Origin: a virus
Virus record (IMG/VR): IMGVR_UViG_3300009085_000027
Coordinates: 9,935 to 73,934 of that record
DNA length: 64,000 nucleotides
Strand: one strand, 5' to 3'
Shown: in pieces, positions 23,178 through 44,435 of the stretch
Numbering within the stretch: position 1 is the stretch's first letter
Layout of the letters: each line of letters begins with the position of its first letter
Made by a program: the position numbers and the translations under genes
The notes under the pieces: generated by a model
What the model was told of the DNA's origin: nothing
Database searches by the model: none
Seen by the model: the letters and a program-made list of their open reading frames with translations, nothing else

Positions 23178-25184
23178 ATGCCGCGACTCCGACTGCTTCC
23201 GCCGGTAACGGCGGTGACTCAGCCGGAAGAGGCCACCCCGGTCATCGAGTACTTGATGAACCGGGGTGGTCAGATCGCAATCGATACAGAGACCACGGGA
23301 CTTCACCGCACGAAGTCCCGTGTTCTCTTTTGGTCCATGGCCACAGAGGACAAACGTTTCTTCCTCTCGGTCGATCGACTCAATCAGTTCGATTGCCTCT
23401 TCCAGCGAAAAGACATCAGATGGCTCCTGACGAACGCCAAGTTCGACAAGCACATGTTGAAGAACATGGGCTACGACCTCAGAGGTGAGGCCTGGGACAT
23501 CATCGACATGGATGCCATGGACGATGACACACGCCCCCACGGGTTGAAGGAGCAGTCCAAGTACGCCTACGGCGCCAACTGGGGTGAGTTCAAGGATCTG
23601 TTCCTGGATCCCTACATGGTCTCTGAGGTCATGGGGATGGACGCTCTCATGCTGTCCGGATTCAAGAAGCTGGGGATCGGGGACAAGCTCCTGGAGGTCT
23701 ACGACCAGTGCCCGGAGATTGTGGAGGAGTACGCCAGCTGCGACGCCTTCTTCACGTACATGCGCGCTGCGGACCTGATGAAGCAGCTCGACTCACTGTA
23801 CTTGCCCACGGAGTACTTCCCCGAGCTACGCACCCTCCTCGACTACTACCGCATCATTGAGATGCCGCTGACCCAGACGCTGTGGAAGATGGAGCGTGTG
23901 GGGATCAATGTTGATGTCGACTACGTCAAGAAGATCGATGGCCCCATGCGAGACGGTATCCGGGCTGCTGAGAGCCGGGTACACGACGCAGCTGGCAAGA
24001 AGTTCAACGTCCGGTCCACCGATGAACTCAGGGGAATCTTGTTCGGTGAGAAGTCTGGATTCGGGTTCAGGCCTGTGTCCTACACCACGGGCAAGGGCAA
24101 GCCCGTTGCGAGTACGGATGAGAGCACACTGAGCATCTTGATGATGCGGACCCCAAAGGACTCTCCAGCGGGTAAGTTCCTCAAGGCGCTCGTCGATCAC
24201 CGACATCTTGCCCAGCTGCACAGCACATACATCAAGAAGCTGCTCGGTCGTCTGGACGAGCACGACACCAGTCTGAGATGCAAGTTCAACCAGTCGGTGG
24301 CCCGCACCGGCCGGTTGAGTTCATCAGACCCCAACATGCAAAACATCCCAGCCCGTAATGACCCCTACAAGATCCGTGGGGCTTTTACGGCGCGCAACGG
24401 CAAGGAACTCATCGACTACGACTACCCCCAGATTGAGTTCCGCATCGCTGCGGTCTTGTCCGGGGAAGAAGGCATGATGGAGTCCATCCGTAAGGGATGG
24501 GACGTACACAACGCCAACACCGTTAGGATGTACAAGTCCGACTCTGACGTCACCTACGAAGCCGTAGTTGAATCCCGAAGGAAGAAGGACGCCAAAGAGT
24601 CACTGACTGAGATAGATCGCAAGCTACTGCGGTTCCGAGACGGCGCCAAGACATCTGGTCTGGGATGTCTCTACGGTGAAGGTTCCGGAAAGATGGCTCA
24701 CGACCTGGGCTGTAGCAAAGACGAGGCCCAGGAGCTGATCAACACCTTCTTCACCGCGAATAAGATGATCCATGCGTCGATTCAATCGATGCACAGCTTC
24801 GCCCACGAGACAGAGATGACCTACACCATGCTAGGTCGTATCCGTCGCCTCCACCGCATCAACTCCAGCCTTGGAGGTTTGGTCGCGGAGGAACGTAGAC
24901 AGTCCTACAACACCCTGATCCAAGGCAGCGGCGCAGAGATGCTGAAACTGGCCATGCTTCAGATCGATAATGACCCCGACTTCCAAGCCCTTGGTGGTCG
25001 ACTTCTACTCACAGTGCATGACGAGCTCGTCGCTGAAGCCCCAAAGGACACAGCAGCAGAAGTCAGTCGCATCATGAAAGCCAAGATGAGCGATCCCTAC
25101 AACTGGGGGCCAATCGTAATGACGTACCCCGTACCCGTAGATCCCGAAGGGGCGCGGGGCCACCGATGGAGCGATCTCAAGTGA
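23178..25184 (+). CDS. polA: family A DNA polymerase with 3'-5' exonuclease
   Basis: DTETTGL, NAKFD, YASCD, RTGRLSSSDPNMQNIP, DYPQIEFR, RDGAKTSGLGCLYG, NTLIQGSGAE, VHDE. Confidence 0.97.
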   Translation: MPRLRLLPPVTAVTQPEEATPVIEYLMNRGGQIAIDTETTGLHRTKSRVLFWSMATEDKRFFLSVDRLNQFDCLFQRKDIRWLLTNAKFDKHMLKNMGYDLRGEAWDIIDMDAMDDDTRPHGLKEQSKYAYGANWGEFKDLFLDPYMVSEVMGMDALMLSGFKKLGIGDKLLEVYDQCPEIVEEYASCDAFFTYMRAADLMKQLDSLYLPTEYFPELRTLLDYYRIIEMPLTQTLWKMERVGINVDVDYVKKIDGPMRDGIRAAESRVHDAAGKKFNVRSTDELRGILFGEKSGFGFRPVSYTTGKGKPVASTDESTLSILMMRTPKDSPAGKFLKALVDHRHLAQLHSTYIKKLLGRLDEHDTSLRCKFNQSVARTGRLSSSDPNMQNIPARNDPYKIRGAFTARNGKELIDYDYPQIEFRIAAVLSGEEGMMESIRKGWDVHNANTVRMYKSDSDVTYEAVVESRRKKDAKESLTEIDRKLLRFRDGAKTSGLGCLYGEGSGKMAHDLGCSKDEAQELINTFFTANKMIHASIQSMHSFAHETEMTYTMLGRIRRLHRINSSLGGLVAEERRQSYNTLIQGSGAEMLKLAMLQIDNDPDFQALGGRLLLTVHDELVAEAPKDTAAEVSRIMKAKMSDPYNWGPIVMTYPVPVDPEGARGHRWSDLK

Positions 25185-26458
25185 AGAAGAAAACCAAGGC
25201 TGTGAAGTCGAAACCGGCGAAGACGAAAGCCGTGAAGACCGTGGAATCCAAACCCACGACTAGAGAACCCTCGGGTGGGGAGGACAGGGCTGGTGTACTC
25301 GGTAACCTGATCCGAGGGATCAATGCCAAGTACAAGGCCACTGTCATCTCCCTAGCCAAGGACACCAGCTCCTCGTACATCCTGCGTAGACCAACGGGGA
25401 TCACGAGTCTGGACATCAAGCTAGGGGGTGGATTCCCGGCCAGCGCGGTGAGCGTCATTGTTGGACCCGACGGGGCTGGCAAGGACTACATCGTGTGGAG
25501 AACTGCGGCCGAGGTCCAAAAGATCTATGGTGAGTCCTTTCGCATGGCGATCTTGCTGACAGAGTTCAAGCTCGACAAGCCCTTCATGCGAGACATCTGT
25601 GGCTTGAAAGTGGCACTGACACCGTCCGAGATCGAAGAGCTCGATGAGTCCAGGACGAGGCTCGGTGTTGACATCCTTACGGATGAGGAGCGCGAGAGTC
25701 TCACCACGGAGATTGGCGAGATCGGGATCATTGAGGGTCAGACCGCGGAGGACGGGTTCGACATCCTCATCGACATCGTGGAGAAGAATGTCTGCCAACT
25801 CGTGGTGGTCAACTCCATCGGGTTCATGCAGACCGCAGCGAAGGAAGCCACGGATAGCTTCAACGAGTTCCCGCAGCAACGGAACGAGGCAATGCTTCTC
25901 ACCAAGGTCATGCCGAAGCTCAGCATGATCCTGAACCGATCCAGTCATGTCGGGGAGAGGAACGAGACAGCCATCATCCTCATCAACCAGATGAGGGCTA
26001 AGACAGGCGGTGCCCCAGTACGTGGCCGCCCAGTGATGGAACGCGACACCTATCAACCCGGTTCAGGCGCCTGGGCCCTGAAGCATGGCAAAGCCCTCGA
26101 GCTCTGCATCCACAAGGGGAAGAAGCACACCGATGTGGAGACCAACGTCGTAATGGGCCGAGAAGTTCCATGGCAGATAACGAAGGGAAAGCTGGGTACT
26201 CATGACGGTCTCAGCGGCAGCTTCGACTTCTTCTACGACGGGGGTGTCGACATCATCGGGGACCTCTACAACACCGCGGTGTCTGCAGGGCTGTTCGTAG
26301 TGGGTGGTGCCTGGATCACATATGAGCACCCCGAGTTTGGGTTCAAGGCTCAGGGAAAGGCCGGGGCCAGGCGCCGGATGATAGAGAGCCCTGAGCTCTG
26401 CGCCCACATCCGTGACGCCTGTTTCCGGGCGGCGCAGACCGTGTACCGGCACAAGTGA
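25181..26458 (+). CDS. recA: RecA/UvsX-like recombinase with atypical Walker motifs
   Basis: PTGITSLDIKLGGGFP, GPDGAGKD, QTAEDGFDI, IILINQMR, GAWALKH, GGAWITY, KAQGK. Confidence 0.9.
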   Translation: MKKKTKAVKSKPAKTKAVKTVESKPTTREPSGGEDRAGVLGNLIRGINAKYKATVISLAKDTSSSYILRRPTGITSLDIKLGGGFPASAVSVIVGPDGAGKDYIVWRTAAEVQKIYGESFRMAILLTEFKLDKPFMRDICGLKVALTPSEIEELDESRTRLGVDILTDEERESLTTEIGEIGIIEGQTAEDGFDILIDIVEKNVCQLVVVNSIGFMQTAAKEATDSFNEFPQQRNEAMLLTKVMPKLSMILNRSSHVGERNETAIILINQMRAKTGGAPVRGRPVMERDTYQPGSGAWALKHGKALELCIHKGKKHTDVETNVVMGREVPWQITKGKLGTHDGLSGSFDFFYDGGVDIIGDLYNTAVSAGLFVVGGAWITYEHPEFGFKAQGKAGARRRMIESPELCAHIRDACFRAAQTVYRHK

Positions 26459-27015
26459 AGACCACGAAGCAGCGTAAACGCCGGTCCCGCCGTGTGGAGA
26501 AGACAATCGCCCAAGACCTGGGTGGTCGTCTGACCTTCAACAGTGGGGCCGGCGACGAGAAGGCGGACTGCAGGGTGCCACATCGCTATAAGGGGTCGGC
26601 CCAAGGCGTTGTGGAAGCCACTGCCATCGCTATCCGGGTGGAGAGCAAGACCACGGAGAAGTCGAAGTACACCATGATGGCTAGGGACTGGGCGGACCTC
26701 TGGAGGTCAGCTTCCCTTCAAGGTGAGATCCCTGTCTTCCACATCCAACTCGATACACACCGCGACCCCTTGGACCTTGCCTTCGTGACGTCAGCCCTCA
26801 TGGCGGAGTTCACCGAGGACATAGCCCCCAGTGATGGGAGCTCAAGGGCCATAGTCATCAACCGGGAACGCGGCGAATCCCTGATCCCGAGCCAGACCGT
26901 AAAGATCCCCCACCACAGGTTTGATCTGGTCGGTGATGGAGGCCGACACTACAGTGTTTGTCTCTGTCTCTACAGTGTCCTGAGATCACACCTCCACAAC
27001 CTGGGTCTACCATGA
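26455..27015 (+). CDS. PD-(D/E)XK nuclease, Holliday-junction resolvase-like
   Basis: EKTIAQDLGG..NSGAG..KAD..VESKTT. Confidence 0.75.
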   Translation: MKTTKQRKRRSRRVEKTIAQDLGGRLTFNSGAGDEKADCRVPHRYKGSAQGVVEATAIAIRVESKTTEKSKYTMMARDWADLWRSASLQGEIPVFHIQLDTHRDPLDLAFVTSALMAEFTEDIAPSDGSSRAIVINRERGESLIPSQTVKIPHHRFDLVGDGGRHYSVCLCLYSVLRSHLHNLGLP

Positions 27016-27845
27016 AGAGTGCAACGAGCATCAAGCACATCGCCGACCTCGGGAAGGAAGACGCCGTAGACCTGGAGAGCCTCTACGTCGAGACGCTGGC
27101 GGAGGAAGTGAAGAGTGACCGACAGGGTGTGTTCCACCCCAGCGCGATTGGGATGTGTGGTAGGCGCAACGTCTACGAGTACATCCGGGCCCCCTACATC
27201 AAGACCATCGACCCCGACAGTCTTGAGGTGTTCGCCATGGGGCACGCCGTACACGACATCATCCAGACCCGGCTGGAGAATCTCACCGCCCCGGCTCGGC
27301 ACGGGATCACGTACAGCTTCAGGAAAGAGGTCGGATTCGACCCCAAGACTGACAAGCTCTTCCTCAACTACGGGATCGGTGGAACCACCGACGGCATCCT
27401 GACCTTCTCCGGGCCAGGATGGGAGCAGCGCGGAATCCTCGAGGCCAAGTCGATCAAGGACAAGCTCTTCTCCGAACTCACCGGACCAAAAGATGACCAC
27501 CTCATGCAGGCGCATCTCTACGCCTACAGGTTCGACTGCCCCTTCATCTGGGTCTGGTACTACAACAAGAACACGTCGGAGCGTCTGATCTACGCCAGGG
27601 TATTCGATCCTGAGATCTTACACGCCGCCCTGGACCGGTACGTCGGTTGGATGGGTCACATCAAGGACGGAACGCTGCCAGATCGGGAAGAGAGTTGGTA
27701 CATGTGCCCGAGGTGTGAGTACCGAGACATCTGCAAGCCCCCGACATTGGATGCCATCAAGGGCAAGGCCGCTGGGCGAGCCAAAGCCAAGACCATGAAC
27801 ACACTGCGCAAGACCGGTATGAGGAGGCTCGTATGCCTAGATTGA
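27012..27845 (+). CDS. Cas4/RecB-like PD-(D/E)XK exonuclease
   Basis: HPSAIGMCGR, GHAVH, GTTDG, LEAKS, QAHLY, CPRCEYRDIC. Confidence 0.88.
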   Translation: MKSATSIKHIADLGKEDAVDLESLYVETLAEEVKSDRQGVFHPSAIGMCGRRNVYEYIRAPYIKTIDPDSLEVFAMGHAVHDIIQTRLENLTAPARHGITYSFRKEVGFDPKTDKLFLNYGIGGTTDGILTFSGPGWEQRGILEAKSIKDKLFSELTGPKDDHLMQAHLYAYRFDCPFIWVWYYNKNTSERLIYARVFDPEILHAALDRYVGWMGHIKDGTLPDREESWYMCPRCEYRDICKPPTLDAIKGKAAGRAKAKTMNTLRKTGMRRLVCLD

Positions 27846-28474
27846 ACCTAAGTGGGGTCCCGATACTTGAGGCCGGTATAGACCGGGACATCAAGATCAC
27901 AGCCGAGTCCATCATCGATGACGTCAGGAAGCAGACCAGGGCTCTTGGGCTCTTGCCCTACCCAAAGCCTGACACTGCTCCCGACACCTTGGTTGGGATC
28001 GAACTGGAGAGCTTGCCGAATCATGCCCTGGGTCAGCTCTACATCCGGTACACCGCCCATGCCCAGTACGTCGGTGGGCAGCTCGCTGAGTTGGAGGCGG
28101 CGTATCGCCTGGCCTGCACCAACTTGAAGCACATCGATGCCAAGTTGAGGTCCAAGCTCTTCGCCAGTGCTGTGCCCAAGGCAGAGGTGGCGTCACGGGC
28201 AAAGGACGACGCCTTGTACCAAGAGTTCGATACCGAGGTGGTTCGTCTGTTCGCGATGAAGACCTTGGTCACGGCACACTACAGGGCCTACGACAAGCAG
28301 GCTGCGGCTCTGAGCCGCATCATCTCGCTGCGTGAGCTGGAGTTCGAGCAGAACCTTCGGGGGTCGAACATCGATGCGGCAAAGAACAGGCGTGGTAAGG
28401 GCAAGGCCACACGCCCCAGGATGGACATCGACGGTAGCCCCTTGGAGTTCCGCCGGCGAGAGGGGGAAGACTGA
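27833..28474 (+). CDS. helical protein, possibly UvsY-like recombination mediator
   Basis: Long amphipathic helices, near recA; the functional call is weak. Confidence 0.5.
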   Translation: MPRLNLSGVPILEAGIDRDIKITAESIIDDVRKQTRALGLLPYPKPDTAPDTLVGIELESLPNHALGQLYIRYTAHAQYVGGQLAELEAAYRLACTNLKHIDAKLRSKLFASAVPKAEVASRAKDDALYQEFDTEVVRLFAMKTLVTAHYRAYDKQAAALSRIISLRELEFEQNLRGSNIDAAKNRRGKGKATRPRMDIDGSPLEFRRREGED

Positions 28475-28980
28475 TGACCCCGCTCTTCTCCTTCACCGCC
28501 GAGTTGTCGGACCCCGCACCGATTAGTGTCAACGAGATGTACTCCACCGGTAATGGCGGCAGGCGGTTTCTGACCTCCGCGGGTCGCCACTACAAGGACC
28601 GAATGAAAGAGGTCGTGTCAGAAGCCACGATGTCTTTGAGATGGAAAGACGCCGTCGATGCTGTCTATAAGGGTGGGGCCTGGGTTTCTCTGTCCGTAGT
28701 CCTGGAGGTAGATCGACTCGCAAACGGGTCGTGGAAGCCGGGTGGTGGCAAGACCACCTCCGGAGATCTCCGAAGTCCGTATCGAAAGATGGACGGGTCA
28801 AACTACATCAAGATCGTTGAAGACGCCGTCGTCTTGGGCACAGGGATTGACGACTCTGCTCATCTCGATGTTCGGGTCCGTAAGACCCAAGCCACGGGAA
28901 AGCCCCGAGTCGTTGTGGAGTACAAAATCTATGGGACGAGCCACGGAACTGGTCAGCCTGAACAAGGACAAATCGGATAA
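28474..28980 (+). CDS. rusA: RusA-like endodeoxyribonuclease
   Basis: PISVNEMY, GRHYK, DGSNYIKIVEDA..GIDDS. Confidence 0.8.
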   Translation: MTPLFSFTAELSDPAPISVNEMYSTGNGGRRFLTSAGRHYKDRMKEVVSEATMSLRWKDAVDAVYKGGAWVSLSVVLEVDRLANGSWKPGGGKTTSGDLRSPYRKMDGSNYIKIVEDAVVLGTGIDDSAHLDVRVRKTQATGKPRVVVEYKIYGTSHGTGQPEQGQIG

Positions 28981-29149
28981 CCCGAACTACGCGGTGTGCT
29001 ACGCCCGAGGCGCTGTGTTCAAAACCGAAGGCCACTTCTTTAGGGTGGAAAAGGGTCGCCGTAATCTGGTAAAGCGCGAGCTCTGCGCATCCCAGTACTA
29101 CGGGGCGCGGTGCAGGATCTGTCCCAATCGCGTAGAGGCCCCGTGTTGA
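28931..29149 (+). CDS. small Cys-rich hypothetical protein (72 aa)
   Basis: ATG 28931 after GGAG; C...C...CRICP. Confidence 0.55.
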   Translation: MGRATELVSLNKDKSDNPNYAVCYARGAVFKTEGHFFRVEKGRRNLVKRELCASQYYGARCRICPNRVEAPC

Positions 29150-29469
29150 ACCTTGACGATCTCAACACCACAGAGCTAGTTGCTCTAGCCCGGGAGAACG
29201 ACCCTGATGCACATCGCGGTCTGGGCCGTGACGTGCTGTTCACCCTAATCACAGACACCTACGAAGACACACTACCTGAACGAAAAGTTGACAAACTCAG
29301 ACTGAAGATCATGGGCTACATCCTGGACCACTGGTCCCAGGTGAACCCTCTTCTGTCCTGCCCGGCAAAAACCAAGAACCCAAGAGCGTGCTTCCGCTGC
29401 ACTGACGTGCAGGTCGTGGAGTGCGCGTTCGTAAACCCCGCTGCATTCGACAAGACCCAAGGAGACTGA
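29146..29469 (+). CDS. hypothetical protein, N-terminal helix-extension-helix-like segment and Cys cluster
   Basis: LDDLNTTELVALARE..GLGRDVLFTLI; CP..CFRC..EC. Confidence 0.7.
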   Translation: MNLDDLNTTELVALARENDPDAHRGLGRDVLFTLITDTYEDTLPERKVDKLRLKIMGYILDHWSQVNPLLSCPAKTKNPRACFRCTDVQVVECAFVNPAAFDKTQGD

Positions 29470-29470
29470 A

Positions 29471-29947
29471 ATGACACTTCCCGCAGGAATCAAGGCTCGT
29501 ACCCGTGAAGAGTGGACTTCGATCGCGAACAAAGAGGAGCCCATCGAGCGCAAGCCCATCATCGACGCCTTGAAGGCGCTGGGCATCGACCCGATGGACT
29601 ACCTCGCCATGGACAATGACGAGCGCGTCGAGCGCGTCATGGCGGCTCAGAGCGAGGGTGAGGAGGAGGCACCGAAGAAGTCCAAGGCCAAGGCCTCGGC
29701 TTCATCAGCCTCGGACGAGCCAGTGACCAATGGTAAGTCCTCGGCTGGCAAGGACCTCGCTGGTCTCCAGGCCACGGTGAACCACCTCCGCGCCGAGGTC
29801 GAGGAGCTCAGCGCGCTGGTTCGCGACGCCCACTTCCTGATCCGAGTCCTGGTTCAATCCGACGCCCGCCTGAAGGGCAACGCCCGGGACGAGGACCTCC
29901 AGGGAGCGATGTACGGCAAGCTCGCGGTGGCCCGGGGAAACGGCTAG
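29471..29947 (+). CDS. hypothetical coiled-coil protein; zero-frame product of candidate frameshift gene
   Basis: GGAG RBS; ends ...CGG GGA AAC GGC TAG. Confidence 0.8.
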   Translation: MTLPAGIKARTREEWTSIANKEEPIERKPIIDALKALGIDPMDYLAMDNDERVERVMAAQSEGEEEAPKKSKAKASASSASDEPVTNGKSSAGKDLAGLQATVNHLRAEVEELSALVRDAHFLIRVLVQSDARLKGNARDEDLQGAMYGKLAVARGNG

Positions 29948-29972
29948 CCCGGACTGACCAGCTTGGGGTCCG
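29935..29972 (+). other. candidate -1 ribosomal frameshift signal (G_GGA_AAC + hairpin)
   Basis: Correctly phased X_XXY_YYZ heptamer at 29935-29941, 8-nt spacer, stem CGGAC/GTCCG with inner CCA/TGG. Confidence 0.7.
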
Positions 29973-30150
29973 TCCACTTCCTGAAGATCATGTGTTCGAC
30001 ATCGACATCGATAAGCTCCACAAGATGTCGATGTCAGAACTCTTCGATCTCATGGGGCAACTGGGCCTCAGCACAGCGGGTCTAGAGGACCGGGCATCGG
30101 CATTGGACAAGCTCATGTCCGATGCCACCACAGTTGATATAGTGGAGTAG
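29935..30150 (+). CDS. -1 frame extension with Rho-N/HEH-like domain
   Basis: Open frame GKRLARTDQLGVRPLPEDHVFDIDIDKLHKMSMSELFDLMGQLGLSTAGLEDRASALDKLMSDATTVDIVE*, ending right at the terminator. Confidence 0.65.
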   Translation, partial: GKRLARTDQLGVRPLPEDHVFDIDIDKLHKMSMSELFDLMGQLGLSTAGLEDRASALDKLMSDATTVDIVE

Positions 30151-30181
30151 GAGGGGGCGGGTGATCCGCCCCCTCTCTTTT
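30151..30181 (+). terminator. rho-independent terminator ending the replication operon
   Basis: GAGGGGGCGG-GTGAT-CCGCCCCCTC-TCTTTT. Confidence 0.88.
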
Positions 30182-30191
30182 GGAGGTCACC

Positions 30192-30710
30192 ATGCGCTAC
30201 CTGCTTTTTGCCTTCACCGCACCCTGGAGTCTCACCATTGGGTGGGGCTGGGTTCTCCTACTCCGACTCTTCGCCGCCAGAGATCTGCGGTGGGAGCCCA
30301 CTGGAGTGCTCACCGCAGAGTGGAGACCCTGGGCAGCCCGGCTCTGGAGGTTCTCCACCACCCTGGGCCGCGGAATCATCTACCAACCCCAACACCGCGC
30401 TCGCCGAGGATCCCCGTGGACCAGAATCCAACACCACGAGCACCTCCATGTCAGGCAGACCGAAGACCTCATGCTCCTTGGCTTGATCCTGGGAGCTGCC
30501 GTCGCCTCACTGACCCAGGACTGGACTCTTGGCATGGTGCTGTGGTGGAGCAGCGGGATGTGGCAAGTCCCCAACTTCCTCACCGCCTGGCTTCGTGGGG
30601 GTCACCCCTACAGGGACGCCGAGCATGAGATCGCGGCCTATGCCGCCACGGACGAGGACGATGAGGGCTGGAGTTGGTTGAAGCGACACCGGGCCAGGTC
30701 GAACCCCTAA
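30192..30710 (+). CDS. membrane protein with HExxH zincin-like motif (DUF4157-like)
   Basis: GGAGG RBS; TLG..I, HEHLHVRQ, EHEIAAY; hydrophobic segments. Confidence 0.7.
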   Translation: MRYLLFAFTAPWSLTIGWGWVLLLRLFAARDLRWEPTGVLTAEWRPWAARLWRFSTTLGRGIIYQPQHRARRGSPWTRIQHHEHLHVRQTEDLMLLGLILGAAVASLTQDWTLGMVLWWSSGMWQVPNFLTAWLRGGHPYRDAEHEIAAYAATDEDDEGWSWLKRHRARSNP

Positions 30711-30738: not shown

Positions 30739-31083
30739 ATGCCAACTGTGTTGTTAGTAGAGGACGATGACTTCAAGGCCAGGGCTGTGACCCGAGCCTT
30801 GAAGCACCACGAGGTCGTTAGGGTGGGGGACTTCGAGTCCGCCCTGGTAGTGATGGACTCTGTGTCCATCTACGCCATCGTCACGGACTGGGACTTCCCG
30901 TCTCGCCCAGGTGGCAACCCCGTTCATGGGGCCGGTTCCGGCGTGGTGCGCAGAGCCCAAGAGCTCGGCATCAGGGTCGCCGTGTTCTCCGGGCACCCCA
31001 AACCTCCGGAGTTCCCAGGTGCCTGGCTACCACAAGGGAACAAGGTCCACGAGGAACTGTGCGAAGCCGTAGACGGTCTCTGA
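30739..31083 (+). CDS. stand-alone response-regulator receiver (CheY-like) domain
   Basis: VLLVEDD, IVTDWDFP, VAVFSG; AGGAGGT RBS. Confidence 0.85.
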   Translation: MPTVLLVEDDDFKARAVTRALKHHEVVRVGDFESALVVMDSVSIYAIVTDWDFPSRPGGNPVHGAGSGVVRRAQELGIRVAVFSGHPKPPEFPGAWLPQGNKVHEELCEAVDGL

Positions 31084-32374: not shown

Positions 32375-34738
32375 TCAGTAGTTTCGGGGCCCCGGGTCTT
32401 GGAACTCAACCTGAGCAGCGAAGATTATGTCATTCACATCTGTAGGTGATGTAGTTACAACAAGGTAGTACCCAACAGTTGAGTTATCGACGACTAGGGA
32501 CAGTCCAGTGATCGCCAATGTTTCGTAACCAATGCCACCAGAAGTGTCTGTTCCAAGACTACCCGAAACAGTGGGAGCCCCTGGGGTTCCGAAGTTGTAA
32601 GTCACAGAACGAAGATCAATGCCGAACCCCGTAACTGCGGTTTCAGTGAGCAGCCGAACCGCCTTGATGGTGGCACCAGTCACTATCGAACGGTTGAGTG
32701 GTATCCAAAGCCTAGCTGATGCCGCCCAGGCCGCCGGGGAGACCCTCGGGGATGTAGTACCCGAGAGGTTCCACAGGGATAGACCCTCGCTTCGGTCCAG
32801 CGTTGGTTCCGCAGACGCTACGTCCGAACCATTGGTCTGGAAGATAAACTGATCAGGTGTGATGGTGACCAGGCGCGTCTTTGCAACAGCGCTGCCGTAT
32901 AGGAAATCCCCGGCTCCGCTACCATCGGCGTCTGCTACTACATTGCTATTGGCATAAACATCGGTGGTCGCGTAGACATTCGCTGCTGCCATGTCTAGAC
33001 GGGCAGAGACACTGCCGTACGAATAGATCGTACCATCGACATCGACCTTGAACGTCTCGCGGTAGCCGTCACCGACCCCAGGGGAGGGCGTGAATGCCCG
33101 GAGATGGGCACGCTTTGAGCCACCTGTGTTCTGCGCCCCCCAGAGGACTAGAGACGCGGCATTGGAGTCATGACCGCCGGACAGGACGTTGTAGCCAACG
33201 ACAGGGGTGGTATCCCCGGCCTGTACTGGATTGGCGTTGTCGAAGGCATGCTTCCTGCCCAGCGCAGACACCGCGAAGAATCCGTAGACCTGCGCGTTTC
33301 CGGAAACCGGTAGGTGGCTAGGGACTGTGCCATCGAGCTTACGGAGTCTGAACCCCTTGTTGCCGGTGTTGATCACATCCATGACCTGGTAGAGGCCACC
33401 GATGTCTCCACCACTACTGCCGAGCTCGACCATCATCCCACCACCACCGTAGAGATAGCGGGTGAGATTGGCGTCTTGGGCCAGCGTGAACAGAACCTCT
33501 CCGTCAATAGGGGAGTTCGCGGAGTACGTAATGTTCGGGATTGGAGCCAAGAGATCTGGCGTTACCGCTGGATCGATCGGCGCCAAGGACAGGTAGTCAT
33601 AGGTCTCGGACAGAACGTCGTAGGACTGAACGAAGTGACCCATACCCTGGGTCTCTGTTGAGGCGTACAGCCGGAACGTCGCCGGACTTCCGTACCTCTG
33701 GTCGAGTGTACTGGTGTCCGCACTGCTGAAGTCGGCAACAAAGCGGCCCCAGCTGTCGAAGCGAGTTGTGTTCAGCTCCGCGCCCTTCGCGTCCATTGCA
33801 CTGAACTTCAGAGATGTCGATGCCCCAGTGCTTGTACCCGGGCCTTGGGAACCCGACTTGACGTGAAGCACCGTGTCGCTGCCGTGCAGCGGAGTCATCA
33901 AGATCTCTTCGGTGCCAACCGCACGGCTGCTATGGGCACCGTAGGTGGCAAACTGTGTTCGCCACACCGTCACAGTACACGGCGAGCTCGCCGCAAATGA
34001 TGGATTCGACCCGTCCACAGCCTTGAGGATGGCCTCGGTATTCAGAGCCCCGGAGTTGGAGTAGTAGTAGAAGCCGTCATCACTGGCGCTACCACTGATC
34101 TGAATCAGGTCGACCCCCTTCATCAGGAGGTCGGTGTCACCCGAAACGTGGAACTGGCCCGTGGTGAGACGAACCGTTGTGGGCAACGCTCCACCCGGAT
34201 TCAGTGTCGCAGCCTGGGTGTACTCCAACTGGGTCTGACCGCTGGACTTAGCCAAGACCTTGCGGTCCATGAATCCGGCGATGGGATCATCCCCACTCTG
34301 GCCGTTGGCTGCAGTGCGCTTTCCCGCGAAGTCAAAGCCGATGCTTCCCGCAGCGGTGTCTCCAACGGCATTGGCTCGGAAGTGACTGAGGTCCCGGGCG
34401 CTGTCACCTGTCGTGGCGCTGCTCACCACAGAGTTGGTTTGCACCGCACCATGGGTCTTGGCGATGTCTCTGCCACCACCGCTGGGACCGACGCTGCCGT
34501 TATCGTAGGCTCCATCCAGACCAGCGGACTCGAAAGCCGCGAGTCGTGTGTTGAGGTCCTCGTCATTCAAGACCAGGGCGTAGTGGGACCTATTTGCGAT
34601 GGCAGCAGTGAGTTGCTCACCGAAGGCAACACCGCGATTACCGGCACCATGCCCGGCTGGATTGGTCAGTGAGATCGGGACCTGGGCTCCGAAGCCACCA
34701 CCATCACCGAACATCTCTTCTTTGGTCTTGAATGCCAT
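32375..34738 (-). CDS. tail/baseplate-associated structural protein (787 aa)
   Basis: Gly/Ser/Thr beta-rich; downstream of baseplate genes. Confidence 0.75.
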   Translation of the reverse strand: MAFKTKEEMFGDGGGFGAQVPISLTNPAGHGAGNRGVAFGEQLTAAIANRSHYALVLNDEDLNTRLAAFESAGLDGAYDNGSVGPSGGGRDIAKTHGAVQTNSVVSSATTGDSARDLSHFRANAVGDTAAGSIGFDFAGKRTAANGQSGDDPIAGFMDRKVLAKSSGQTQLEYTQAATLNPGGALPTTVRLTTGQFHVSGDTDLLMKGVDLIQISGSASDDGFYYYSNSGALNTEAILKAVDGSNPSFAASSPCTVTVWRTQFATYGAHSSRAVGTEEILMTPLHGSDTVLHVKSGSQGPGTSTGASTSLKFSAMDAKGAELNTTRFDSWGRFVADFSSADTSTLDQRYGSPATFRLYASTETQGMGHFVQSYDVLSETYDYLSLAPIDPAVTPDLLAPIPNITYSANSPIDGEVLFTLAQDANLTRYLYGGGGMMVELGSSGGDIGGLYQVMDVINTGNKGFRLRKLDGTVPSHLPVSGNAQVYGFFAVSALGRKHAFDNANPVQAGDTTPVVGYNVLSGGHDSNAASLVLWGAQNTGGSKRAHLRAFTPSPGVGDGYRETFKVDVDGTIYSYGSVSARLDMAAANVYATTDVYANSNVVADADGSGAGDFLYGSAVAKTRLVTITPDQFIFQTNGSDVASAEPTLDRSEGLSLWNLSGTTSPRVSPAAWAASARLWIPLNRSIVTGATIKAVRLLTETAVTGFGIDLRSVTYNFGTPGAPTVSGSLGTDTSGGIGYETLAITGLSLVVDNSTVGYYLVVTTSPTDVNDIIFAAQVEFQDPGPRNY

Positions 34739-34778
34739 GATCTAAATCTCCAGCCAGGTCTTTCCTAGAACAGTGGAA

Positions 34779-35447
34779 TCACCCCAGGCGCATCTCCCAG
34801 CGGACCTCAATAGAGAACACACCCGTCTTGTGGACGGTGTCGAACGTGTCATACGCCACGAGGCTAGTTCCAGCCCCCGGGTAGGTACCAGCTGCACCGT
34901 TGGGCAGCTCAGGATTGGCAGCCGAGGTGTACAACCCAATCTCAGAGAGCGGAACCGAAGTGAACCCACCCCAGTTGATGTCCGAGACCGAGAACAATGC
35001 GATGAACCGAGTCGACGTCGCAGTCGGGAACGTCCCGGGCGCTACGATCTCCTTCAGCCATGCTGGGTTCGGAGCCGCATAGTCCGTCACCGAAACTGGA
35101 CGCTCCAGATTACTCACCGTGACATCGATATCGGTCTGGGCGTTGTGCGGACCACCAAGGTACTCGTAACCCAAGGGGTAGACATCAGAGTACGGCGATG
35201 CGCTGGCGCTGCCCGAGTTCTGGCGAGTTCCACCGATCCCAAACCCGACGTAGCGAACCACGTGGTTCTGATGGCGGGTGAATCCGCCGGGGGTCAAGGA
35301 CTGTGGAGTGATGGTCTCACAGATGAACTGCCGACCACTGTTCACCACAATGTTGTGGGTGCGCTGGTGCCACCGCCTACGCTTGCCACGCTCGTACAGA
35401 TCGATTTCCAGATTCCAGCGAACGTCTATGCCTTCATTGATCTTCAT
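34779..35447 (-). CDS. tail collar/fibre-attachment baseplate protein
   Basis: HNIVVNSGR, VGFGIGG, LSEIGLY, LVAYDTF..VHKT pattern. Confidence 0.7.
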   Translation of the reverse strand: MKINEGIDVRWNLEIDLYERGKRRRWHQRTHNIVVNSGRQFICETITPQSLTPGGFTRHQNHVVRYVGFGIGGTRQNSGSASASPYSDVYPLGYEYLGGPHNAQTDIDVTVSNLERPVSVTDYAAPNPAWLKEIVAPGTFPTATSTRFIALFSVSDINWGGFTSVPLSEIGLYTSAANPELPNGAAGTYPGAGTSLVAYDTFDTVHKTGVFSIEVRWEMRLG

Positions 35448-38400
35448 GGGAGAACGACTCCTCCGGACTTGACTACGGCGGTTACCACGTACGTGCCAGC
35501 AGGGAGATTCATATCATAGGTCGGACTGAATGTACCCCCGGGAAGCACGTAGGTGCCAAAGACATCAGTGACCAAGGTGTCGGCAAAGAACACGGAATCG
35601 AAGGTAATGATGCCCCCGCCCCATACGATCGTGAGTAGGAACTCGATGTAGTCCTCTGGACAGTCCACGATCCCATCGAAGTAGGTGATGCCGTCATCGA
35701 ACTCGGACCACAGGGTCCCATCGCCGCGGTAGTCGTCATAGCTGTAGACCCGGCCGGAGGGACAGGTCGAGTCGAAGAGGTTGACGTTCAGGGTCCCGTC
35801 GAGTTCATCCACTGGATCTATGGTGTCGTCGACCTGTCGAAGACCGAGGAGCAGGGGGTGCGTGTACGTCGGTTTCACCTTCGAGATAAAGCTGAACAGC
35901 AGGGACAGGTTGGAGATGGAAACCAGGTCAAGATTGAACTGAACCAAGAAGTAGTGGAACTTCTCGATTTCCGTGAGTAGTCCGCCGCGAACGAACGGGA
36001 TGTACCACGTTGGGTCGTTGTAGAGATCAATGATGTCGACACCGCCACCTATTGGGGAGAACTGTGGAATGCTGTCTCCCGTGGCCCAGGGCAGGTCGGT
36101 TTCGGGATTGATGGCCAGGCCACTGGTCTGTGTCAGATTCAGCGGGTCCTTCTTGTAGTAGTAGGTCCTGACTGTCTCCGACGTGATCGAGGTGTCCCCG
36201 GTGTAGTCTCGGATCAGTACGCGACCCGAGGTGGGGCTGAAGTCGTATCGGATCTCTTCGATGGTTCCGGCCACCTCTGCGAATGGCTGACCGAACAAGA
36301 TCTGGGCTCCGACCTGGACGGCGAACACACTAGGACCACGCTGCTGGGCGTAGATCAACCCAGCGACACCAGCGACGTAGTTGAAGTCGTCGGGGAGGTT
36401 GGCAGCATCATCACGAAGGAACCCAGCCAGTGTACCGAACAGGTCCTCGACGTTGGGTTCGTTGCTGAATAGTGTGAGCTCGGCCCAGAAGATGTCGGGT
36501 GGCTCCAGGTCTGGTGTGATGAACACAGAATCCCGGAACTGAAGCATCGGGATCGCAGAGCCATCGATCTCTCTGTAGAACGGCTCCAGGATGTAGTCGG
36601 TGTTCTCCATCCACAGCGTGGGGGACGCAGACACCGGGATCTTGTCCTGGAGCCTGGGGATACCAACGATTTCCTCGTGGATGGGAAGGGCCTTGCGTCG
36701 CTTGACGCCAAGGAGTCTGATCTCGAAAGCCTCGGGGTCGAGAAGGGCCCCGAAGAAGCCGTCGAGGTGGGCAGCCAGCTGTGTTGACTTCTGGGCCACG
36801 ACGGTGCCGCGAACGTCTGTGGTGGCAGACGTGCTCACCGCGAAGACCTCGGCCTTCACCATGTCGCCGGGGTAGCTGCCCAGCGTCTCGTAGTCCACTG
36901 TGCTGCGCACTACACTGGGGATCTCCCACTCCGCAGTGGCATCCAGGGGCAACGACGAGGTGAGTAGCACTCGCTGGTTGAGTAGCGGGTCGTCATCACT
37001 GCTCAGTACCCGATCAATGACGAAGGACTGACCATTGTTGAGGACAAGGAGATCTCCGCGCTGTACACCAGACTCAACCAGGTCTGCGCTGCCGCCGGCG
37101 TAATACACACGGTCGGTGATGATTGACCCCGTCGAACCAGAGACGTAGTTGAACACGTCCGTGGTAATATCTAGATCAGCGGCTGCAGTCGACGCCGGCG
37201 TGATGCGGAATGCACGGTTCGCCTTGAAGGACAGCCTGCAGCTCCTGAAGATGAAGAATACGGTCGACCCCAGATTGTCGGGTATCGACTCACCCACCAC
37301 AGTCAGAGATCCACCAGGATTATTTACGGTAGTGATCTCAAACCGACCTACGTCCGGGATAACCAGGGTGTCTCCAGCGAACGCCCAGCTCGGCAGGGAC
37401 AGTGCAGGAAAGTCAAACACCGCGGTAAACCCGTCGCTGTCGCCGTCATCCACCGTAGATCCAGTTCCGGAGTGGAGACAGGACGGTGCTATGGATCGGA
37501 TCCCGTGGCCATAAGCCCGGATACCAGACCCAATCAATGCAGCATTCACGTCTGCAACGATCTGATACACGGTGTCGCCAGTAAGCGTGACACTCGTCGT
37601 GGTTGTGGCGCTGGGATCAGACCCATTGGGGTACTCGAAGACCAGGGTGTTGCCCGTGACAGTGGGTGTACTGACCTCAAACTCCTGGCCAGCAGAGATT
37701 GACCCATACCGTACCGAGATCTCTACCTCAGTTGGATCCGTCTCTTCAATCAAGGATCGATAGGCCAACCACTTACGCTGGAACACCCGCTGTGCGTCAC
37801 GAAGGCTGTAGTTGTAGTGGTGCTGCCAGACCTCGAGCATCCGACCAGCCAGGATCTGAGCGGCGCCCTTCCAGGCTTCCTCGAACACACCACGGTTCTC
37901 GACGAAGCCCCAGTCGTCTCCAAGACCCTTCCAGATCGGGGACACGTCAGGCTCTTCCCCGAGTGGAGCCCTGGAGCTCACAATGCTGGCCAAGACCTCC
38001 GAGGGTTCAGAGGCAGACTCACCATCGGTGACGATCAGCTCGAACCGATAAATCCCCGGCGCATCGGGTAGGAAGTACGGGGTCTCGGTGTCTGCCTCAC
38101 TGAGCAGGCTCTGGCGAATGATCCGGAAAGGGGAGGCGCCCAAGGAGTCCGGGATCACGTCCTGTGTCACGCTGAGCGTACCACCGGGGTTGTCCACGGC
38201 GTTGATGACCGCACGGATCCCAGCTATTACCAAGACGTCCCCGTCCGTGACCCAGGCCGGGAGGCTGTTCGGGGTAAAGGACAGGACAGTGGTGACACCA
38301 TCAGTATCGCCGTCATCCGTGGTAGCCCCCGTGCTCTTGTCCACGCCGTAGGCAGACCCGTAGGGGACATCGAACACGCGCCACAGGTAGCCCAGAGCGG

Positions 38401-39145
38401 CCCCCTCGATATCGAAACTCGCCCTGCCATCAAGTCGCACGGCCTGTCCCACTGGAGACACCCGATCAGGGCCAGCAACCGCCGTCGGCGGGAAGTTCGG
38501 GATCACGAGGTCTGAGGCAAGGCGAAGAGCGACGATCTCCATCTTGCTGGGCTCTGCGGGTCTGCCCAGGACAAAGACCTCGAACAGATCACTGATCCCC
38601 GGAGGAGTGGGCTCCACCGGGATGATGTATCGAATCTCAGGGGTGACTCCCGCGGCATCCCCGATGTAGACGTAGGCCCTGCCCAGAGTGCTATCCACTG
38701 CGACACGGATCGTGCGGAACTCCGACGCGATTTCCTGTGTGGTCGACGTCGTGTCCGGCAAAGCAGTGACGCTACCGAAGTCGTCTACACGACTCACCGC
38801 CACACCCGTGGTGGCGAAGTAGATGCTCACCCCACGACCTGTACTGTCCGCAATGGTGATGCCCGCACGGGCGCTGGCAAGATCCCCTGTGTCGTGGGGC
38901 ATCTTCGGGAAACGCGCGGAAATCTCTATGGTGAACCGGGAGGGCACAGCGGTGTTGAACACCAAGCTGGCCTCCACGCCGTCTGCTGACTCCGCGGAAA
39001 GAACAGTGAGGTCGGAGGAGTACGTAAAGTACGGCAGAACCCCAGGGGTGATAGTGAGATCACCGGGTCCCAGCGACAACAGACTACCAATGGTGGTGCT
39101 GTCGAAGTCCGCGAGGTTCCATGTCGCCGAGGTCGGAAGTGCCAT
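35444..39145 (-). CDS. large baseplate wedge protein with PKD-like domain
   Basis: PPTAVAGPD..VRLDGRASFD...PGIYRFELIVTDG; C-terminal SKVKPTYT; internal duplication. Confidence 0.75.
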   Translation of the reverse strand: MALPTSATWNLADFDSTTIGSLLSLGPGDLTITPGVLPYFTYSSDLTVLSAESADGVEASLVFNTAVPSRFTIEISARFPKMPHDTGDLASARAGITIADSTGRGVSIYFATTGVAVSRVDDFGSVTALPDTTSTTQEIASEFRTIRVAVDSTLGRAYVYIGDAAGVTPEIRYIIPVEPTPPGISDLFEVFVLGRPAEPSKMEIVALRLASDLVIPNFPPTAVAGPDRVSPVGQAVRLDGRASFDIEGAALGYLWRVFDVPYGSAYGVDKSTGATTDDGDTDGVTTVLSFTPNSLPAWVTDGDVLVIAGIRAVINAVDNPGGTLSVTQDVIPDSLGASPFRIIRQSLLSEADTETPYFLPDAPGIYRFELIVTDGESASEPSEVLASIVSSRAPLGEEPDVSPIWKGLGDDWGFVENRGVFEEAWKGAAQILAGRMLEVWQHHYNYSLRDAQRVFQRKWLAYRSLIEETDPTEVEISVRYGSISAGQEFEVSTPTVTGNTLVFEYPNGSDPSATTTTSVTLTGDTVYQIVADVNAALIGSGIRAYGHGIRSIAPSCLHSGTGSTVDDGDSDGFTAVFDFPALSLPSWAFAGDTLVIPDVGRFEITTVNNPGGSLTVVGESIPDNLGSTVFFIFRSCRLSFKANRAFRITPASTAAADLDITTDVFNYVSGSTGSIITDRVYYAGGSADLVESGVQRGDLLVLNNGQSFVIDRVLSSDDDPLLNQRVLLTSSLPLDATAEWEIPSVVRSTVDYETLGSYPGDMVKAEVFAVSTSATTDVRGTVVAQKSTQLAAHLDGFFGALLDPEAFEIRLLGVKRRKALPIHEEIVGIPRLQDKIPVSASPTLWMENTDYILEPFYREIDGSAIPMLQFRDSVFITPDLEPPDIFWAELTLFSNEPNVEDLFGTLAGFLRDDAANLPDDFNYVAGVAGLIYAQQRGPSVFAVQVGAQILFGQPFAEVAGTIEEIRYDFSPTSGRVLIRDYTGDTSITSETVRTYYYKKDPLNLTQTSGLAINPETDLPWATGDSIPQFSPIGGGVDIIDLYNDPTWYIPFVRGGLLTEIEKFHYFLVQFNLDLVSISNLSLLFSFISKVKPTYTHPLLLGLRQVDDTIDPVDELDGTLNVNLFDSTCPSGRVYSYDDYRGDGTLWSEFDDGITYFDGIVDCPEDYIEFLLTIVWGGGIITFDSVFFADTLVTDVFGTYVLPGGTFSPTYDMNLPAGTYVVTAVVKSGGVVLP

Positions 39146-39168
39146 GCCGCCGTGATACTCTACACCGA

Positions 39169-39474
39169 ATGAGACTCAAACCACTACCCCCAGGTCTAGC
39201 CAGCTTCTTGATCCGTGACGAGCAAGACGCCCTGACCCCACTCGTAGAATCCCGCAATCACAGGATCAAGTCCAAGCCATGCCCAAGATGCCGGGGCAAC
39301 ATGCACCCCACCATCATGGCAGACTACGTGTTCTCCCCGCATGACCCGCTGCCGAAGACCGTAGGTCGTTGTGTTGATTGCAGCCTGGTCCTGGACCCCC
39401 AAACCAACCTGATCCTCGAGACCGGGAATCCCGCAAACATTGAGGATCCGTTCAAGATCGATGTCCAGGACTAG
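39169..39474 (+). CDS. small Zn-ribbon protein antisense to the baseplate operon
   Basis: CPRC...CVDC; fills the gap between two minus-strand genes; TGA-TACTCT 7 nt before ATG. Confidence 0.75.
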   Translation: MRLKPLPPGLASFLIRDEQDALTPLVESRNHRIKSKPCPRCRGNMHPTIMADYVFSPHDPLPKTVGRCVDCSLVLDPQTNLILETGNPANIEDPFKIDVQD

Positions 39475-42400
39475 CGGATGCCACTCGAAGAAGTCCGCCT
39501 CACAACGAGACTTCCGGGCAGGTAACGCTGAGACCGTACGGTGTCTACGAAGTCGGTGACCACTAAGCCGCTGATGGCTCGATCCATGCCGTGGTAGATA
39601 ACCACGAACAGAGGTGCCCTACGGCCTGTGGTGTCGTCGCTCTGGGTGAACACCGACACCGCGCCACGACGACGCAAAGCATCGACGAGATCTGTGACCT
39701 CCAGCTGGTCCCCCGGGGCAATCCCGTCTAGGAGCTCCTCCAAAGCACGCCTCATGTTGGCTTCGGTCTCGCCAGAGGAGTAGCCCCAGTTCAGAGCCAC
39801 ATAGTGAGGCAGTAGGTGTCGCACCAAGATCTCTTCACAGAGGACGCGCTGGAACTTGGAGTCTGAGAAGCTCTGGACGTCGTCCACGAGCTGGCTTCGC
39901 TCGTAGTTGACCTGCACGTTCTGCTGACTGAGCTGCACAGCCTCGATCGGATCATCAGGGCTACCCACCAACTGGATGGACCGACTGATCTCGGCGAAGA
40001 GCCGCTCTGCCCGACTGAACGATGTCGACGCGTTCTCGGTGCGCAAGCGATAGCCGTCACTGCGGTGACCGCTAATGTCCAAGCCAACCCCGGCGTCAAG
40101 GTTGGAGACGTCCCCAGGAGCCAAGCCCTGGAGCTCGACGTCGGCGTAGTACAGGTCAGTGTCATCGGCGTTGTCGCTCATCTCGGTGGACGACACGCGC
40201 TGTACGTACCGAAGGATTCGATAGTGGGTCTCAATCACTGACCCACCAGACAAAGGCGTGGCTGTGGCGAGTTGGATCTGGTTTGCCCCGGACACAGCGG
40301 ACACCACGTATGTGGCCTTGGCGGGGTGATCCGTATTGCTCGGCGCCGTAATCCCGAGCTCCGCGCTGGCAGTGGTATTGATCAGTTCAATCCTGCGATT
40401 GGACTTCAGAACTAACTGACCCAGACCGTTCAGGCTGGCGATGTCCTCATCGACCTGGGTGTTGATGTAGTCGACGACATCTTGTCTTGGCATGTCGAAG
40501 GGGAACGACACCAGGATGATGGGATCGGAATCCAGGCGTAGGCTCAGGGTCTTGGCATTGACGAGTACGTCCCCAGAGGGAGGCAACATCACCGACCCTG
40601 TGATTGGCACGTAGAGGACCTCGACGAGGTCTCCGGCTTTGATGCCAGCGGCGTAGAAGTCCAGACTGGCGTCAGACAGGGTGTTGAACCCAGAGTCAGT
40701 AACGCCTGTGTTAGGAAGGTCCGGGCTCGGTGGAGCCGGTCGGATCACTCTGGTGTTGTCGGGATCCGGGATGTAGACGAGGTCTTGGTTCTCAACAGTC
40801 GTCACGAATCGCGTCGTCGCGTAGTCGAACTCTGCTGAGGTCGGGGCCAGGAAGTAGACTCTGGCTGAACCCACACTGGGTCGCGCAATCCGAACCCGAC
40901 TGGCTAGTGCGGGGCGGAACACAACGGAGTTGTACAACGCAGTGGTCCCGGAAGGACCCAGTGGCCCACTACCGACCCGGATTCTCCAAGTGTTGCCGAA
41001 GAACGCGGGGTTCTCGACCAAACGACCCTGGGTCCCGGAGTTGTTGCCATCTACGAACTCGATGACATCACCGGCACGGAGTTTGACGCCGTTGAGATTG
41101 CCGTCGCGGGCCACGATCTCGGTGTTGCAGACTCCAGCAACAAGGCCCAGTACAGACCCCACAGTGCCGGTCTCGGCAGTGACCTTGAATGCCATGGACG
41201 TGACGATGCCTACGACGTACTCGTCTGTTGTACCCGTAGGAATCACTACGGCGGATACCCCGGCAGCCAGCATAGCGACATTCGCATTGATCAGTGCAGC
41301 TATGCCTGCAGGGGTGTAGGCCGCCGCAGGGATCACGAGCGTTCCACTCGTCGGGAACGTCCAACCCGTTTCAGGTGGCGTGGTCTGCCAGCTCAGTGTG
41401 CCGTTCACAGCGATAGGTGCTGTGGACAGCCAGGGTGTAGTGCGAGCCCCGGAATCCACCAATCCGTCAAAGACGAAACCACCACCCTCGTTCTGGAACG
41501 CGTTGCTGACGACGAGGACAGGGTCTCGATACGGGATCGTGGTTCCGCTGGGAGCACCACTACTGTCCAGGAGCTCAAGTGACGTGACCCGGACCACTGG
41601 GGTTTCCACGGCCTCGGAGCGGGTGAAGACGCGGTACGACACAGCACTGAGACTTCGTACGGCCACGGGGTCAATCTTCAGGCTCACGGCCCCGACCTCC
41701 GTGATGGTGAAGTCACCGCCGTAGAGGTCGTCTTGGATCTCGAGGATGTCTCCGATCTGAACATTGGCGTCCACGAAGTTCGTGGATGATGCAGTCACCA
41801 CGGTGTCACTTCCGCCCGAGGTGATGAGGTCCGCACCAGTCACCTTGATGTCCTTGGGGTCGGTGAGCTCCACGTCAATGGTGTCGACCACCTTCCAGGA
41901 CAGGTTGGTCTGAGACCCCGTCATGGTGGTGTCCAAGGTGAGAAGCCCACCGGTCGAGGTCAAGATTCTGTAGGAGTTGGCGTCAGCCCCTTCCTCAAGG
42001 ACCAGGCTCATCCCAGGCTCGAAGAGTGCCTGCTGCAGCACCGTACTATCACTGAGGTCTACGACGCTGGTGGCATTGGTGATCGCATTGATCCCACTGG
42101 CCACGGGGTTCTCATCCGACAGGTTTGTGATCTGGGCTGTAGCATCCTCGGTCTCGCCAGCGACGTAGACGTCCGTCTTACCGCCGATGTGGATCTCGTC
42201 CCCGGTGATTTCCAGAGTGCCGTCCGCTGAGTCCGGAAGGGTGATGCCACCTGGAATGTCCGTAATAGTGAGGAGCCTCTGCCGAAGCATCCAGGTCACG
42301 GTAGTGGACGAGCCCGCGGTGAGGACCGGGATTTCATCGGAGATTTCCACCTGTGTGGCAGACAGGACCCGAACAATCTCTGAGTCCAGGGCTACGAGCC

Positions 42401-43445: not shown

Positions 43446-43452
43446 GTTCGTC

Positions 43453-44094: not shown

Positions 44095-44096
44095 GT

Positions 44097-44420: not shown

Positions 44421-44435
44421 GACCTGACTCTATCA

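Follow-up and report, generated by a model that had tools for sequence, protein, structure and literature searches.

A conserved candidate −1 ribosomal frameshift in the last gene of a phage replication operon

We analyzed the gene that closes a plus-strand replication/recombination operon in a 64,000-nucleotide stretch of viral DNA (the window), which is part of the 73.9-kb IMG/VR virus record IMGVR_UViG_3300009085_000027, estimated to be about 45% complete. The gene (29471-29947, + strand) encodes a 158-amino-acid protein in its 0 frame, and the original prediction for this locus held that a −1 frameshift in this non-tail gene at the end of the replication operon adds a C-terminal domain. 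Our comparison of six phage lineages strongly supports that claim, and a conserved programmed −1 ribosomal frameshift is very probably the best explanation of the sequences compared. In the mechanism that we propose, most ribosomes would make the 158-amino-acid protein and terminate at the TAG at 29945, and a fraction would slip one base back on G_GGA_AAC, with the tRNAs re-pairing from GGA AAC to GGG AAA. Slipped ribosomes would then read 69 codons of the −1 frame to position 30150, yielding a 226-amino-acid isoform whose extra C-terminal part would consist of a flexible linker and a helix-loop-helix domain of about 35 residues. We infer that the slip is ribosomal, that its efficiency is substoichiometric and fixed, and that both isoforms act together in the replication/recombination programme of the phage.

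A slippery heptamer precedes the 0-frame stop

The 0 frame ends with the codons CGG (29933), GGA (29936), AAC (29939), GGC (29942), and TAG (29945-29947). These positions place the heptamer G_GGA_AAC (29935-29941, + strand) in the X_XXY_YYZ phase relative to the 0 frame, as had been claimed for the end of this open reading frame (ORF), with the stop one codon past the heptamer. No stop interrupts the −1 frame from 29737 to a TAG at 30148-30150, with 69 codons past the slip, and the extension that would be read after the slip (29941-30150, + strand) is followed directly by an intrinsic terminator (30153-30181, + strand) made of an 8-bp G+C stem and a T-run. The sequence thus bears out the expected extension of about 69 codons that stops at 30150 before the operon terminator. 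The predicted trans-frame product has 226 amino acids (157 + 69), with the junction ...ARGN/RLAR.... Since GGGAAAC occurs 8 times in the window against 8.6 expected, that is, without enrichment, a lone site is unremarkable, and its significance rests on conservation.

The extension shows the marks of a coding sequence. Guanine-plus-cytosine content by codon position switches to the −1-frame pattern at 30000-30119, with 0.75 at third and 0.33 at second positions. We also compared positions 29300-30300 with contigs of four other metagenome runs, which contain near-identical strains from other samples and studies. None of the three strain substitutions in the extension (30012, 30072, and 30102) changes an amino acid in the −1 frame, whereas all of them do so in each of the other two frames, and seven of the nine substitutions in the 158-amino-acid ORF are synonymous in the 0 frame.

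The site is conserved in six lineages

DNA was available for six lineages, which we refer to as the window, L004, L005/L006, L007, L008/L009, and L002/L003; seven loci were aligned. L004 and L005/L006 came from a metagenome scan, L007 and L008/L009 (contigs of 150-177 kb) from a viral scan with a distant subfamily, and L002/L003 (195-kb contigs) from a scan with the neighbouring Cas4-like nuclease. No relative came from viral-contig scans with the family protein P0002, alignments A1 and A3, RusA, P0013, or P0019, nor from the first metagenome scan or either of the genome-contig scans. GenBank phages gave no match by blastn of the region or by tblastn with P0001, P0032, P0029, P0015, or P0089, and two further alignments, A2 and A5, were too diverse for patterns.

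Synteny with the window extends over the nuclease through the frameshift gene in all homologous loci. The frameshift protein is 48, 36, 35, and 28% identical to that of the window, and the L002/L003 protein is undetectable by tblastn. Across this range, GGGAAAC is in phase in all six lineages, with the 0-frame stop 1-3 codons later, and is the only invariant block of the 61-nucleotide alignment of the seven loci. The flanking codons vary, being CGG, AAG, GAG, CTG, CTG, and TCG before the heptamer and GGC, TCC, and GAC after it. The invariant GGA is not a matter of codon bias, because GGA makes up only 18% of the glycine codons in the operon. Five of the seven loci have GGC plus a stop as the six bases past the heptamer (TAG in the window; TGA in L007, L008, L002, and L003), and for this reason the trans-frame peptide begins with R-L in those five.

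Counted from the heptamer, the −1 frame runs without a stop for 69-79 codons in each lineage and codes for a homologous domain (alignment A7; tblastn E values of 1e-8 to 4e-5). Past the −1 stop, all six lineages have a terminator made of a stem and a T-run, about 210-240 nucleotides downstream of the site. We note that the placement of both the 0-frame stop and the terminator is near-invariant in these sequences; that either might contribute to slipping is speculative.

The protein family carries a C-terminal signature of the heptamer

A word-based search returned P0002 as the sole homologue of the 158-amino-acid protein (52% identity, 157 amino acids, ending in ...ARGGNA). An exhaustive hidden Markov model search with the two sequences gave 82 representatives at 50% clustering, mostly of 140-230 amino acids, and C-termini were counted in 81 representatives after two doubtful hits had been removed. 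GN followed by 0-4 residues ends 66 of the 81, with exactly one residue after GN in 47 of these 66, whereas the 15,787 other dipeptides include GN only 26 times. Of the 15 representatives left, two end in EGK[GE], which fits G_GGA_AAG.

Directly before GN stands E in 23 cases and otherwise L, S, A, P, G, K, T, R, V, Q, or M. Absent from this position are D, N, H, F, Y, C, and I, the residues without an NNG codon (P ~3e-8), although over the 15 positions that precede, these seven account for 23% of the residues, D alone for about 10%. This pattern is what a nucleotide constraint of the form xxG GGA AAC predicts and is not predicted by a peptide motif. What follows GN begins with a residue of the G-initial codon class (G, D, E, A) in 63 of 65 representatives with this ending, which could reflect a 3′ context effect on slipping or mere composition of the tail.

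The extension domain was not found in frame in any of the 81 representatives, nor in longer proteins, where the search counts as weak evidence. Since no in-frame carrier was found, the two parts are apparently joined only through the −1 relation. Other obligatory frameshift pairs likewise lack in-frame fusions.

As a separate observation, the 15 representatives without a terminal GN (P0023, P0031, P0041, P0072, P0075, P0082, and others) include proteins with acidic ends such as ...GEE and ...SEED.

Points against a frameshift and alternative explanations

Several observations weigh against programmed frameshifting. About 75 family clusters beyond the six lineages were judged from protein C-termini alone, and no RNA run is among the sequencing runs listed for the stretch. 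The original prediction had proposed a hairpin downstream of the site and looked to homologues for conservation of both heptamer and hairpin. The hairpin is there by folding (29951-29975, + strand; stems 29951-29959 and 29967-29975, spacer of 8-9 nucleotides, about −13 kcal/mol), but a role as stimulator, though possible, finds no backing, since it is no better than dinucleotide shuffles (z of +1.1 and +0.2) and, unlike the invariant heptamer, is not conserved, the structures of the other lineages being different and non-homologous. Downstream pairing is predicted in every lineage at differing positions and with differing sequences, mostly no better than shuffles, and L007 alone stands out (−38.5 kcal/mol, z −2.5). 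Thus, the six lineages share no conserved or statistically unusual structure at the usual spacing of 5-9 nucleotides, and they show no consistent upstream stimulator resembling a Shine-Dalgarno (SD) sequence. In favor of slipping, G_GGA_AAC, a classical tandem-slippage signal, is one of the heptamers on which mammalian ribosomes shift most readily and serves in the g-t genes of a haloarchaeal virus, and G_GGA_AAG is highly shift-prone in Escherichia coli (PMC5009743); on the other hand, E. coli is reported to shift less with AAC than with AAG in the A site (PMC5009743). Finally, the lack of stops from the heptamer to the first start-like codon reaches only weak significance (P ~0.1), off-frame stops being rare here; six of the seven loci conserve an ATG where the first helix of the extension domain begins; and in L004, L002, and L003 it is preceded by an SD-like sequence (−5.9 to −8.5 kcal/mol).

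The last two of these points favor two separate genes, in which a small protein of 41-52 amino acids would start at the GTG at 29992 or the ATG at 30025, or arise by termination-reinitiation, and the heptamer would have no role; a gene caller did call a 52-amino-acid ORF (P0003) in this contig. However, pairing with the anti-SD sequence at the internal GTG and ATG of the window amounts to −1.0 and −0.7 kcal/mol, against −5.9 to −12.3 kcal/mol for six real starts in the window, so the claimed lack of an SD sequence before these codons holds for the window. The same is seen more widely, with −0.1 to −2.0 kcal/mol for candidate internal starts in the window, L007, and L008 and −5.4 to −12.3 kcal/mol for real starts across the loci, with one coupled exception. 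In L005, no start codon at all precedes the domain, the first start-like codon being extension residue 46, inside it. Moreover, a −1-frame motif G-V/L-x-P/S-L/P, followed by a hydrophobic pattern, precedes every ATG, GTG, and TTG in the window, L004, L005, L007, and L003, and since its codons differ at third positions between lineages, it is conserved at the protein level. Two genes would also leave unexplained the invariant in-phase GGGAAAC with its fixed −1 relation in six lineages, as well as the combination of GN-stop and NNG codon in 66 clusters. We therefore consider separate genes improbable as an account of the locus; judging by the SD-like sequences, L004, L002, and L003 may make an independently initiated free peptide in addition.

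The other alternatives are less probable still. A conserved C-terminal peptide motif G-N-x, for example an acidic interaction tail, with a coincidental slippery overlap, would suit the many acidic tails and the family members that end in acidic runs without GN. It is very unlikely given that the codons GGA AAC are invariant in all six DNA lineages though GGA is a minor codon, that E stands before GN 23 times and D never, that the two EGK variants have K in place of N, and not D, S, or Q, and that the homologous −1 ORF always lies downstream. Slippage of RNA polymerase at GGGGAAA would give the same fusion protein, an outcome that the comparative data do not separate from a ribosomal slip, and recoding by such slippage is known in bacteria (PMC5009743). 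Bacterial transcriptional slippage needs long A or T runs, however, and runs of 9 have been described (PMC5009743), whereas the runs here are very short (G4A3 in the window; G3A3 in L004, L005, L007, L008, and L002). It is on this sole ground, the shortness of the G and A runs, that we hold polymerase slippage to be quite improbable; the strict X_XXY_YYZ phasing is in turn a feature of ribosomes, not of polymerases. A one-base assembly or sequencing error that splits a single ORF might be suspected from the short homopolymer runs at the site. The original prediction had named such an error as a possible refutation, but contigs from three other runs (X3, X4, and X5) in two other studies cross the heptamer without an indel, and the 0 frame ends at the same place in all independent assemblies. 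The same architecture also recurs in six independent lineages and 66 protein clusters, and no in-frame version of the joined ORF was found. The error is thus effectively refuted, with a negligible chance of being the cause. Together, separate genes, a peptide motif, and an assembly error fail because each leaves unexplained the invariant in-phase heptamer and the −1-frame conservation upstream of the start codons.

Predicted folds of the two proposed isoforms

The AlphaFold2 model of the 158-amino-acid product (mean predicted local distance difference test score, pLDDT, of 84) consists of a four-helix N-terminal domain (residues 12-62), a disordered linker rich in K, S, and A (63-95), and one long and two short helices (96-147). 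Compared with 48,161 chains by VIA, the N-terminal domain matches the Rho N-terminal domain 1a62 best, though weakly, with Z 5.7 and a root mean square deviation (rmsd) of 2.0 Å over 47 residues. The next matches are YqbF and LEM, and Z values of this size may reflect common helical arrangements. For the whole protein, Foldseek with the model gave nothing significant, Pfam and PHROGs gave chance-level matches only, and the ESM Atlas returned only unnamed viral clusters.

The model of the extension is less confident (pLDDT of 66 overall and 75-81 in the core) and has helices at extension residues 31-40 and 51-61 joined by a loop. This core, a predicted helix-extended loop-helix, corresponds to 30031-30123 (+ strand). 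Its top Foldseek rows are the SAP-like domain of CDNF/MANF, the Rho N-terminal domain, and the SAP domain of Tho1, with rmsd values of 1.3-2.4 Å over 38-46 alignment columns and E values above 1. Three members of the extension family gave no Pfam match at E ≤ 1; when seven members were compared with the Pfam families Rho_N, HeH, and SAP (PF07498, PF12949, and PF02037), only one matched, to Rho_N at E = 0.21; and a profile search of the PDB gave chance-level matches only. The label "Rho-N/HEH-like" in the original prediction therefore survives as a fold model of modest confidence and has no significant Pfam, PDB, or Foldseek match behind it. Its further claim that the extension resembles the N-terminal motifs of its own gene and of the upstream gene is statistically unsupported, hhalign giving a probability of 2.9% for a match to the N-terminal domain of the family.

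Both the core of the extension and the N-terminal four-helix domain superpose best on HeH, SAP, LEM, and Rho N-terminal modules, but unlike the members of those families they have no significant sequence match, and the likeness is one of predicted fold only. It seems reasonable to use HeH/SAP-like as a description of the modeled shape and not as demonstrated membership. The shape of the fold, together with the gene neighbourhood, suggests a nucleic-acid-binding role in replication or recombination. Tentatively, the protein might bind nucleic acid, and the long isoform might carry a second HeH-like module at the end opposite the N-terminal one. By analogy with known frameshift pairs, one might go further and suppose that the frameshift fixes the ratio of a one-headed to a two-headed DNA- or RNA-binding protein, and that a mixed oligomer bridges or organizes nucleic acid during replication or recombination, an idea that we regard as doubtful. 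A prediction for a dimer of two copies of residues 90-158 scored 0.08, which weighs neither way. The original prediction had both isoforms co-assemble at a fixed ratio through a coiled coil and act as a nucleoid or transcription factor, which would likewise be conjecture. If the two-headed arrangement were true, the stoichiometry logic of gpG/gpGT would be applied to genome metabolism and not to virion assembly, in a widespread clade of large (~150-195 kb) uncultivated phages of freshwater and sediment.

Relation to known frameshift systems

Nearly all known conserved recoding sites of phages lie in genes for tail chaperones and capsid proteins. In the SEA-PHAGES collection, 2397 of 2476 joined genes are tail assembly chaperones (PMC10885494). 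The gene described here shares several traits with gpG/gpGT of phage lambda and its analogues, which shift to −1 on G_GGA_AAG: the heptamer is near-identical, the slip lies a few codons before the 0-frame stop, the predicted products are a short major one and a C-terminally extended minor one whose extra domain is confined to the −1 frame, and distant phages keep the pair without fusing it in frame (PMC5009743). Unlike gpG/gpGT, it lies outside the tail module and closes an operon with PolA, RecA-like, Cas4-like, and RusA genes; its protein is related to tail chaperones neither in sequence nor in fold; and it has AAC instead of AAG in the A site.

The capsid proteins 10A and 10B of phages T7 and T3 are likewise products of a −1 shift, which occurs close to the end of gene 10, and a sequence within the T7 terminator has been reported to influence frameshifting (PMC5009743). 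That gene encodes a structural protein and uses a G_GU-type site, whereas ours is non-structural, and a role for its terminator would be pure speculation. With dnaX, which makes tau and gamma, the present gene shares an association with replication and, in its predicted products, two isoforms that have a common N-terminus, the longer one with extra domains; as in the "reversed" dnaX, where tau is the frameshift product, the 0-frame stop directly follows the heptamer (PMC5009743). In contrast to dnaX, with its A_AAA_AAG site and defined SD and stem-loop stimulators, we found no conserved stimulator, and there is no homology between the two.

No published description of this frameshift gene family was found in the literature; the novelty lies in the gene family and in its genomic setting, the mechanism being classical. 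If our reading is true, a deeply conserved −1 frameshift exists in an early replication/recombination gene, in a phage clade without a cultured or GenBank representative. Standard gene callers would miss the 226-amino-acid product and report the 158-amino-acid protein together with, at best, an orphan ORF of 52 amino acids. The C-terminal signature, GN-x-stop after a residue with an NNG codon, would allow the whole family to be annotated at the protein level, and a natural G_GGA_AAC site without an obvious stimulator would provide a test case for slipping by bacterial ribosomes.

The operon and its surroundings

The operon includes, all on the + strand, genes for a family-A DNA polymerase (PolA, 23178-25184), a RecA-like protein (25166-26458), a Cas4-like PD-(D/E)XK exonuclease (~27009-27845), a 213-amino-acid protein between that exonuclease and RusA, and RusA itself (28474-28980). 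The end of RusA is overlapped by the gene for a 72-amino-acid Cys-rich protein (28931-29149), and the gene directly upstream of the frameshift gene (29146-29469, + strand) encodes a 107-amino-acid protein with an N-terminal HeH-like motif and a C-terminal Cys motif of the C-x-x-C type. The module of p186, the Cas4-like nuclease, p213, RusA, the Cys protein, p107, and the frameshift gene is syntenic in L002, L003, L007, L008, and L009 (IMG/VR contigs of 150-195 kb). Since these syntenic contigs are so long and the window record is put at 45% completeness, the genome of the window phage probably measures about 150-195 kb. The sequencing runs that hold the stretch are freshwater and sediment metagenomes.

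The 107-amino-acid protein has homologues with 48-58% identity at the same position in L002-L008, always encoded directly 5′ of the frameshift gene. In P0019, P0052, P0058, P0062, P0089, and others, it forms the N-terminal part of an in-frame fusion with the frameshift-gene product, which suggests that the two proteins work together. The 72-amino-acid Cys-rich protein is the best conserved of the module, with 63-71% identity in L004-L008 and 44-46% in L002/L003, and it has no family match.

We also considered the frameshift gene as a tail assembly chaperone of the G/GT type and rejected this identity, the gene standing at the end of the replication/recombination operon and having no tail-chaperone match in Pfam or PHROGs; the related loci all share the same non-tail synteny. 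Large genes of virion type lie on the opposite strand, from 31132 on. Among them, minus-strand ORFs of 787, 1233, 1324, and 860 amino acids at 32375-47018 presumably encode virion proteins, and none of these very large ORFs has a PHROG match at E ≤ 1e-3. Judged by sequence, the structural module of the window phage is highly novel. The phage's own tail chaperone frameshift was sought for comparison and not located, the structural proteins being without PHROG match.

Two further conserved genes follow the terminator. The first (30192-30710) encodes a 172-amino-acid protein without a Pfam or PHROG match, whose N-terminus is hydrophobic and which has the His-rich motif H-H-E-H-L-H-V-R-Q...E-D-L. 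Its counterparts in related phages show 38-63% identity (L004 3117-3623; L007 3718-4227; L005 4575-5159, where it is inverted on the opposite strand). The second (30739-31083) encodes a 114-amino-acid protein that is likewise conserved in related phages (L004 4196-4498; L008 3741-4013). It has no Pfam match and only a weak PHROG match (phrog_731, E 9e-4), and its start, of the type V-L-L-V-E-D-D, recalls the receiver domains of response regulators.

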